DNA from: Bispira polyomma
Lineage: Eukaryota
Assembly (NCBI GenBank): GCA_965649765.1
Contig: OZ287752.1
Coordinates: forward strand, 55,986,001 to 56,050,000
Direction: 5' to 3'
Length of the DNA: 64,000 nt
Positions within the stretch are counted from its first letter, which is position 1. Each line of letters starts with the position of its first letter. Under the pieces are notes generated by a model. That model was not told where the DNA came from and made no database searches. It was given only the letters and a program-made list of their open reading frames with translations. Shown here piece by piece: positions 42,401 through 45,400 of the stretch. The translations under genes and the position numbers were made by a program.

Positions 42401-45400
42401 CTAAATGTGATGTGTCGCCGCATTCAAAACAGGCCATGCCTTTAGGCTTTGAAGAATTTGATTTCGTCAGCAAGGCTAACACTTCAGCTATTGAATTCTT
42501 CATCTCTTTTAGACCAATCTCCACAGTATCCAGACGCTCTGTATATGGCACTGATGGTTTGGTACCCAACTTGTTCTTAAACTGCAAGTTTCTCACTTTG
42601 GCTTTGCTTGTAGAACAAGTCCCCGAACTGTCACTATCAGAACTTGTCTGTAATACCATTTCAAGTTACTTCACATTGCCTCCACCCTTCTTCTCCAATA
42701 TAGTCCTCCAATAGGTAGATGCAGATTTGACAAGAGTATAAGCCTCCTCCAAATTCCGTGGATTTTTGTCACAAACTGCTAAAACTGCTCCCTTGTCCTT
42801 ACATCCTTTCAGAAACACTTCCACAAACATAGAATTATTGAATTCTTGGTCCCAAATATTTGGATACGCGTGCAGGATCATCTTCTCAAGTTGTGCTAAA
42901 TACTTCTCAAGTGTTTCATCTTCATCTTGCTCTGCGGTGAGTAATGCCCATCTGATTGTTGTTGGTGCTTCAACTTTGTTGAAGTTGTACTCAAACTTTG
43001 TTTTCAACCAACTAAAGCATTTCAACTTCTCCTTGGGCAGTATGCTGTAATACTCCAGAGCTTCTTTCTTCAGAACCATCGGAAAGGTATCTAGTTTATC
43101 AGCTTCTGACCAATTGAATTTGTCAGCTACAGCTTAAAACTGCGCAATATAACCTCTCCAATATTCCCCGGAAAAAGACATTTTAGGGATCTGCATCTTG
43201 TTCCTTACTGATGCGGGAGTACTGGTGATACGGGAACTTCTACTCACTCTGGATGGCTCAGCTGCAACGGATTCACCTTCTGAGTGAGAAAATTGTAAAC
43301 ACCCATCACAAGAACTATCCAGATTACACTTGGGAGTTGGTTTCGATGGCAACTTCCTACGCCTAGTTGTCTTCTTGCTCTCATTACCAGTGATATTTCT
43401 GTTATGACCTGATCGGCTTCCACCAGTATATTTCCGGGAATCTGTTTTATTCTCAATGCAGGTCACAATGCGGTTGATATCACTGTCTTCAGGATCCTTT
43501 GGAAGTATAGAGCTCTCAGGCACTTTTTTCTCAACAGGTAATGGCTTTTCACTTGATCCTACAGGCTCTCCTGAAACTACTTTCGCTGCATGCCCAGACT
43601 GAGGCCCTACTAACTGTGATGATATGGAATCCCCTGCGACTTGTGAAAGATTAAGATCAAGACCAGTCCAGTCCAAATCCTTGTCGTCAGGATACTGTAC
43701 TGGCAATGGGTAGTCCACATCAAACTGTTGTTTCATTTGGTAACCCCCCCTGATTGATGTTTTCCACTGCCCGCTTTGCTTTGCTGTTCAAACCTCCCCA
43801 TTCCAATCTACTACTGTTATGGAATTCTTGATACTCATTTACCAACTCCTGATTCTGACGATGAAGTTGTGCAATGTTATGTCTTTGACGTTCACAGTTT
43901 TCAAAGTATGACCTCTGAAATTCATTCTTTTGCCGATCGATTTCATTGAAGTTTCGATAGGATTCCTCTACGCCTATTTCTGCTTCCACCTTTAACAGTT
44001 CTTCTTTTGGCAAAGATTTCTTCTCAGAAAGAGTACTGGCTCCTCCCAGATTATACTTCAAAAGAGGATTAACTCCCTTTGAAGCATATTTAGTTGCCTC
44101 GACAGGAAATGTAAACATTTGTCCTTCCTGTTTCCCTTGTAATGATTTCGCCCATAAAAGAGGATTAACTCCTTCAGCAGCAGGTTTTGTTGCCCCAACA
44201 GGAAATGAAAACATACTATCTCTCTGCCTTTCCTGTGATGGTTTCTCATCAAAAAGAGTATTAACCCCTTTTGAAGTACCTGCCTTTGATTCAACAGGAA
44301 GTGAAGATATTTTCTTTTCCTGTTCTTGTACCTGTTTTTCAATCCCGGCAACTTTAAGCTTCCACACACCGACATCCTCCTTGACTTCTTGGACCTCTTT
44401 GCTCAACTGGCCCACATCTCCCTTGAGGAATTCCAAACCTGGCACCACATATTCTTTCAGATCTTTGATCTCTTCTTTCACAGATTTCATATCCCCTTTG
44501 AAATCTTGCATATCACCATTCATTTGCTTCATTAGATCATACAGTAAATCAAGTCCAACTACTTCCTCTTCCACATCCATTTCCCCTTTTGAAGGAGAGA
44601 ACACTACACCACTACCCAATATATTCTCCTTGACATGCTCTGGTAGCGCCACTGTCTGAAAATCTTCCAGGGACATGAATCCCCCAAACTTCGCTCTGTG
44701 TTCAAGAATCAGTTCAGCTCTACGTGGACCAACATCGTTAATCTCCATCAACTCCGCCATAGTCGCTGTATTGATGTTCCACCCAGCTTCCGCCATGTCA
44801 AGTTTCTTTCGTTTTTAAAATTCACCTTTAAGCAATTTTAAATCAACAGCCTTGAATAAACAAGCTCTGTAACATGCAATTGACCTATACCTGTTTAAAA
44901 CAAGTGAAACTTAGATCGCAATGCACAACATTAACACTTGACTACAATTACAACTAGTTAAAAAGAATAATGAATCCTTTCAACAGCACTTGATTAAATA
45001 TATCAATCAATGTAATCAATACCAGTCACCATGCAGTCCAAAAACAATTATCAATGAAGTCCAATACCAAAAATCGCCGAAACAAACTACAAGTATAATT
45101 CACTACAAGCTAATATTTCTAATCTAATTTTCTATCAACTACTGTAGAATTTACGATAAATTTGTTTCTGAACAAACACACACACAAAAAAAAAAACCAA
45201 CAATTTCCAAATGATTATTTTCAATTTTTATTGATACTTCTTTTCCTAATGTACTTTATTTTATTTGAATTAGCAAAACATAAACAAATTCTGGATTACT
45301 TAATTATATTAGTATTTTAAATATTCCTATGCAATAAATATGTAATATCTCAATATTTCCTCAAATTTACTGATTAATTTACAACTAGTTTTATTCAAGA

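Follow-up and report, generated by a model that had tools for sequence, protein, structure and literature searches.

The DNA analysed here raises the question of what a ComEA-like helix-hairpin-helix (HhH) domain might do at the N-terminus of a retrotransposon Gag protein. The window, as the whole stretch is termed here, comprises 64,000 nt of Bispira polyomma (GCA_965649765.1, OZ287752.1:55,986,001-56,050,000, forward strand), and contains a 10.8-kb Ty3/Gypsy element on the minus strand, with the HhH domain situated ~950 bp inside it. The features of the element, in its own 5' to 3' order, are as follows.

45745..46028, minus strand: 5' LTR, 284 bp, termini TGT...ATA, compared with the 3' LTR
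45736..45743, minus strand: PBS-like TGGTACCA, one base past the LTR; the motif is also found in family D copies
44599..44796, minus strand: HhH domain (HHH_3/ComEA-like), N-terminus of Gag, from Pfam, PDB sequence matches and an AlphaFold model
44287..44559, minus strand: predicted coiled coil of Gag, from heptads read by eye and a long helix in the model of P0041
44060..44270, minus strand: 2.2 tandem copies of a 96-nt (32-aa) repeat
43191..44059, minus strand: second helical stretch and low-complexity Gag linker, open throughout in sister copy L015
42693..43190, minus strand: capsid (CA) region, PF03732 at E 1.8e-4, below cut-off in this broken copy
42384..42434, minus strand: CCHC zinc knuckle, PF00098 at E 0.0084, below cut-off here and above it in relatives
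42132..42138, minus strand: slippery heptamer T-TTA-AAC where gag stops; -1 frameshifting to pol predicted
38682..42141, minus strand: pol, with protease, RT, RNase H and integrase in Gypsy order (Pfam)
35675..38382, minus strand: ORF3 in three pieces (repeats, an unnamed Cys/His domain, TatD)
35687..36514, minus strand: TatD nuclease domain with its metal ligands kept; group II by its HxH
35532..35542, minus strand: polypurine tract (PPT)
35255..35531, minus strand: 3' LTR, 277 bp, compared with the 5' LTR
Flanks of the element: 4-bp target duplication GTGT/GTAT, with one mismatch

The two LTRs share 273 matches, with 4 mismatches and one 7-nt indel, and the paired LTRs, PBS, PPT, short target duplication and order of the pol domains are those of a Ty3/Gypsy element. 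The corresponding Gag signature, CA together with the CCHC knuckle, exceeds the cut-off in P0001 and P0006, as it does in most of 21 relatives. The window copy itself is defective in gag, pol and ORF3: gag has a frame change near 43,745 and in-frame stops within and after CA (one at 43,134-43,136), while pol lacks ~540 bp near 39,625 that sister copies have, and its integrase carries a frameshift.

Several further observations concern LTR ends and neighboring sequences. The LTRs of families A and D have TGT...ATA termini, not TG...CA (L166-L179; L184-L193), and these families target mostly ATAT/ATAC/GTAT, with a 4-bp duplication. At one locus (L172), a single LTR is preceded by a PPT and followed by a PBS, so that two tandem family A elements have it in common. 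Head-to-tail Gypsy arrays were also seen at C2:38.24-38.32 Mb and C11:5.67-5.73 Mb, with periods of 6,317 bp (and 1,645-aa open frames) and about 16.7 kb (from the RNase H match list). Adjoining the 3' LTR in the window is an intronless 397-aa frame at 33,912-35,105 (-), which joins a UPF0029/Impact-type domain (E 4e-16) to what reads by eye as a coiled coil with LINE-ORF1-like motifs, and the region 52,800-59,400 holds fragments of a Harbinger-like transposase, a tyrosine-recombinase retroelement and a LINE RT (by eye).

The HhH peptide lies in an open frame at 43,720-44,814 (-), with a Met at 44,796. The original prediction placed a ComEA-like domain at 44640..44796, and this was borne out: the window peptide matches PF12836 (HHH_3) at 39.8 bits (E 4.9e-10; cut-off 27), with the domain extending to about 44,599, and also matches PF00633 under its Pfam cut-off (E 1.6e-4). 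By sequence, the closest PDB entries are EEPD1 (1e-8) and ComEA (1.8e-7 and 7.6e-5), followed by TEFM and KIF22. An AlphaFold model of the domain, built from 14 sequences of the same genome (pLDDT 80), aligned in VIA-align with ComEA (8dss; Z 8.7, rmsd 1.9 Å, 65/72 residues) and, tied with it, Tex (3bzc; Z 8.6, TM 0.75). The best Foldseek match was ComEA, at an E of only 8.5e-3; TEFM and Spt6 are also among the fold matches, as are PsbU and GspK, HhH folds beyond the DNA-binding ComEA, while BAF is absent from the listed sequence and fold matches (PDB search, Foldseek, VIA-align). Both the profile match and the ComEA/Tex fold match were obtained. The modeled fold is that of (HhH)2, in which the ComEA and Tex subfamilies are tied. 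A chance or mis-framed match is ruled out by the above-threshold Pfam score, the fold, the presence of the domain in 71 outside proteins and its recovery in 0/750 shuffles.

A 72-column tree of the short domain gave no answer as to its donor (host EEPD1, Tex-like or bacterial ComEA), and EEPD1 in particular is not indicated as donor by this tree; a likely host EEPD1 copy was read by eye elsewhere in the genome (L073). The word-index search with the HhH profile returned 17 matches among 7,990 scored, all of them prokaryote-type proteins, the ESM Atlas search one weak lead (0.77), and no relative was present among viral contigs.

The attachment of the domain to Gag is evident from sister copies. 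In the B. polyomma genome (1.03 Gb), the domain search gave 65 matches among 118 candidates, and 10 kb was taken at the 64 others. CA is downstream of HhH in 56 of these 64 loci and TatD within 9.5 kb in 46; the eight loci without CA comprise four with TatD, one with pol and three with nothing more. A single natural frame holds HhH, CA and the knuckle in 3/61 loci (L032, 868 aa; L038, 871 aa; L040, 1,065 aa), and a frame runs from HhH into CA in three more of the 61, including L015 and L018 of the window's own family. The same HhH-Gag layout occurs in the outside proteins P0006 (1,055 aa) and P0007 (1,030 aa). The predicted N-terminal position in Gag is thus confirmed by natural fusions to the capsid, which answer the question of whether intact copies join this frame to CA, in the same genome, in P0006/P0007 and in Mytilus. 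An unrelated ORF or a host gene within the element is ruled out by these fusions and by the identical position of the domain in nine families.

Downstream of the domain, the anticipated coiled coil is recognizable from heptads read by eye and from the model of the relative P0041, which comprises HhH, a 114-residue helix, a linker, CA and the knuckle, and for which the top Foldseek matches are the capsids of Arc, PNMA2 and MOAP1 (E 0.012-0.1), with ComEA at E 0.01-0.1. The repeats had been described as ~27 aa long, which proved incorrect: their period is 96 nt, or 32 aa, with 2.2 copies at 44,060-44,270 and a third, more diverged 32-aa unit just upstream (by eye), and 81-nt (27-aa) repeats lie elsewhere, at 38,273-38,484. 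Gag was further held to be unusually long; its coiled coil and linker do make it long, but its length varies from ~550 to 1,050 aa and is no defining trait. Across families and outside clusters, the spacer ranges from 68 to 1,014 aa. Separately, a 556-aa frame (L075:3118-4785, +) that begins with a two-hairpin HHH_3 domain and ends in a disordered tail is probably an unnamed host gene, retrotransposon matches being absent nearby.

To place these elements, RT sequences from loci of the same genome were compared in a quick IQ-TREE analysis (83 rows, containing no named Gypsy reference). The 44 rows that have HhH, TatD or both all fall into a single clade (SH-aLRT 100), separate from the 39 control rows. 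The controls were 40 loci hand-picked from the 150 RNase H matches listed; HhH or TatD was found in 0/40, and CA within the fetched stretch in 27. Co-occurrence of HhH-Gag and a TatD-bearing ORF3 on the RT phylogeny therefore falls within a single clade in this genome, and the suggestion of a distinct lineage is supported by the clade and its controls. At least 151 TatD matches were found in the genome (150 of 296 candidates scored), and among 40 further top-ranked TatD loci outside the HhH set, 16 carry HhH. Of the remaining 24, 17 were aligned; 16 of these are truncated, internally deleted or cut by the ends of the stretch taken, and other members of their families do carry HhH, the seventeenth being L095. 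About nine families in this genome carry the domain, at identities to the window down to 22-30%.

The CA profile was also run against 1.84 billion representatives (13,085 at E ≤ 0.001). In the best 150 CA relatives, the domain is present in 71, always within the first 45 residues, and in 69/85 of those with at least 200 aa ahead of CA; the 71 carriers are clusters below 50% identity. PF12836 is found in 20/21 chosen relatives at E ≤ 0.001 and above cut-off in 15/21, and the relatives run against Pfam usually have Retrotrans_gag and zf-CCHC in the same chain. Organism names are attached to two of 30 clusters examined, all of them Mytilus, where the proteins are labeled CAST/ERC2, interaptin-like, or 'Helix-hairpin-helix domain-containing protein'; one Mytilus protein is a 1,943-aa HhH-Gag-Pol. 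Four short loci were recovered from metagenome contigs, none extending to ORF3. Judged by these sequence comparisons, the domain is a feature of animal Ty3/Gypsy elements that make up a distinct and widespread clade.

The residues conserved within the domain bear on its function. DNA binding by Vibrio ComEA depends on G60, K62/K63 and R71, with K63 contributing most, and ComEA deleted for either HhH motif lost DNA binding (PMC3879209, accessible text). In the window, the first hairpin is D21-V22-G23-P24-R25-R26, then R34, and G23, R25/R26 and R34 match the Vibrio residues in spacing. Among the 71 outside proteins, the hydrophobic-Gly of the first hairpin is present in 58/71, the full GhG in only 35/71, and R/K at the K63 position in 52/71. 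At the second hairpin, Gly occurs in 2/71 and Pro/Ser in 51/71: the second GhG is kept in prokaryotic and host rows and replaced in the element domains, where a Trp conserved in 71% of 85 rows and a hydrophobic helix absent from ComEA follow. The domain reads as a one-hairpin variant of the ComEA/Tex fold and not as a full ComEA member, because the first hairpin is kept and the second GhG replaced. Net charge was considered as an argument against DNA binding and discarded, with a median of -2 for prokaryotic HhH (n=17) vs -1 for the element domains.

The domain is under purifying selection. Within families A, B, C and E its dN/dS is 0.18, 0.16, 0.38 and 0.24, respectively, and between A and B it is 0.14, near saturation. 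Identity between A and B is 52% for the domain, 53% for the coiled coil and 82% for CA.

Eleven of the 12 gag/pol stretches read carry the slippery heptamer T-TTA-AAC where gag stops and have pol in the -1 frame, the remaining stretch ending before the end of gag; Gag-Pol is therefore predicted to be made via -1 frameshifting. The heptamer is also kept in all 15 copies of a non-autonomous subfamily of about 6.7 kb, which consists of the whole HhH-gag and the TatD domain only. These short family D copies (L044, L045, L047, L051, L053-L055, L058, L061, L062, L064, L065, L107, L116, L122) lie on nine contigs, include three near-duplicates, and lack pol and most of ORF3 through one common deletion. 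The TatD HxH is in the Pol frame in 7/15, with the frame open from the slippery site through HxH in six, and is off by one base either way in 4/15 and 4/15. Flanking sequence was taken for ten copies (L184-L193). Eight of these have a PBS, a PPT and two LTRs spaced by about 6.7 kb, and four (five by reading) show an exact 4-bp target duplication, from which it follows that they moved as 6.7-kb units. Values of pN/pS among the short copies (0.37 for HhH, 0.49 for CA, 0.58 for TatD) are mild evidence of constraint on these sequences, because the measure also falls below 1 with transition bias. Pol-deleted copies were also seen in family C (L032, L033, L035, L038), with junctions alike in pairs and with gag and parts of ORF3 kept.

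The second accessory module proposed for this element, TatD, is likewise real (35,687-36,514, E 1.1e-40). Its metal ligands (HxH, E, H, H, D) are kept, per position, in 42-49 of 51 near-full copies. Group II TatD proteins are defined by HxH, which is used for classification, and in humans TATDN1/3 act as AP endonucleases and 3'-exonucleases (PMC10085689, accessible text). For the TatD of these elements, 3'-5' exonuclease/AP-endonuclease activity is predicted. One copy (L034) has an 832-aa open piece with TatD at its end, and ORF3-type TatD proteins are present in other assemblies and in Mytilus. Preceding TatD, at 36,818-37,720 (-), is an unnamed domain for which there was no Pfam match, and which has a Cys/His cluster followed by a PPNCVA-x-L-x-HWR-like motif; it is common to the outside proteins P0240, P0244 and P0249-P0254, one of which is named tatD in Mytilus edulis.

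Our preferred reading, to which we assign a probability of roughly 0.55, is that the domain binds dsDNA without sequence preference, tethering or bridging the particle or its cDNA. The Gag N-terminus would lie outside the shell, as it does in other Gags. The Gag shell, or a cleaved N-terminal piece of it, would hold host chromatin or the element's own cDNA. Gag would be in excess, with Gag-Pol made by -1 frameshifting, and a particle would therefore carry many HhH domains on coiled-coil stalks, such that the weak binding expected of a single hairpin would be made strong by multivalence. Tethering near target DNA and/or BAF-like bridging would favor insertion into the chromosome over self-integration, and TatD would act on the same DNA as HhH-Gag; BAF itself binds dsDNA via an HhH motif and blocks autointegration (PMC3381236, accessible text). 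Several results weaken the DNA-binding reading: the second hairpin is lost, while ComEA without either HhH motif lost binding (PMC3879209, accessible text); the full GhG is in the minority, the window itself having DVG; a transcription factor, Tex, ties ComEA in the fold match; and the domain is conserved like the coiled coil and less than CA. A broader version, that the clade carries its own DNA-handling kit of a 'built-in BAF' HhH on Gag and a particle-borne TatD, with the 6.7-kb elements as specialized satellites and not mere leftovers of deletion, is possible but doubtful. Were it true, the satellites would load the nuclease in place of Pol via the frameshift, sharing particles as helpers or nuclease-armed interferers. 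The domain has 66 residues and a ready-made mutational target, and is thus cheap to check.

Two alternatives are less probable. HhH and TatD could be the halves of one split enzyme, similar to EEPD1, with Gag holding DNA or RNA:DNA while TatD processes it. They mark the same clade, the short subfamily keeps only gag and TatD (in the Pol frame in 7/15, open in 6), EEPD1 is the best PDB sequence match, and the TatD ligands are kept in a family with the TATDN1/3 activities (PMC10085689, accessible text). However, the two domains are in separate ORFs, 7-9 kb apart, in full-length elements, shared ancestry alone would explain co-occurrence on one clade, TatD is out of frame in 8/15 short copies, and the four short contigs of outside HhH-Gags do not extend to ORF3. 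We consider a split enzyme unlikely, together with the roles it would give TatD during cDNA synthesis or integration: end trimming, cutting at abasic sites or clearance of hybrids. Alternatively, the domain could be Tex/Spt6/TEFM-like or protein-binding and, instead of gripping naked DNA, anchor Gag to transcription complexes, a host factor or nascent RNA, or seal its oligomers. The Tex alignment and the appearance of TEFM and Spt6 in the fold lists point in this direction, and the altered second hairpin with its conserved Trp and hydrophobic helix is consistent with protein binding; yet the conserved surface residues are those contacting DNA in ComEA, and EEPD1 and ComEA outrank TEFM in sequence searches, leaving this reading, too, improbable. 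Finally, a captured passenger fragment with no role in transposition, for which the lower conservation relative to CA and the missing second hairpin could speak, is very unlikely and largely refuted by the conservation pattern, i.e., an extreme N-terminal position kept in nine families and 71 clusters despite the variable spacer, and dN/dS well below 1.

Returning to DNA binding by Gag, the closest known systems each share a part of this arrangement. ComEA (PF12836; 8dss, 8dfk, 2duy) is alike in fold, first hairpin, basic pair and downstream Arg, and differs in that its second GhG is present; the element domain instead has x-I/L-P/S, an extra Trp-bearing helix and a fusion to Gag, whereas ComEA is a competence protein. 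EEPD1 (two HhH and an EEP nuclease; 9yi2) also pairs HhH with a nuclease-fold domain, although the element has one HhH domain, with the nuclease supplied by a TatD TIM barrel from a different ORF. The capsid fold and a coiled coil ahead of CA are also seen in Arc, PNMA and other Ty3/Gypsy Gags, none of which is known to carry an HhH domain at its tip. The 'helix-hairpin-helix' of Cer1 CERV was considered and rejected, as it is a leucine-zipper hairpin of another protein (PMC10309623, accessible text). The Juno and Vesta elements of bdelloid rotifers have a non-env ORF3 encoding a DEDDy 3'-5' exonuclease with intact catalytic residues; this is another nuclease fold, and there is no HhH or TatD in the main text (PMC5408684). 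TatD and helix/HhH terms are similarly absent from the main texts of PMC6338049, PMC6238403, PMC8556966 and PMC5408684, and a full-text literature search, with subscription journals and Repbase Reports outside its reach, gave no description of an HhH-Gag/TatD Gypsy element.

HhH-Gag with TatD is apparently a widespread, undescribed variant of Ty3/Gypsy Gag, although automatic annotation already flags the HhH domain in Mytilus proteins, and the pol-less Gag-TatD subfamily of 6.7 kb is an unusual kind of non-autonomous element, new here. The pair marks out a Gypsy clade abundant in invertebrates, and databases list its genes under host-like names (CAST/ERC2, interaptin-like, tatD). Ty3/Gypsy Gags normally package RNA, and retroviruses rely on host BAF or chromatin-binding peptides for tethering and against autointegration; a conserved dsDNA-binding fold on Gag would be an element-encoded answer to both. 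The best functional analogy may be BAF, a host dimer of another family, which resembles the proposed role in its HhH-mediated dsDNA binding, bridging, block to autointegration and anchoring to the target (PMC3381236, accessible text).
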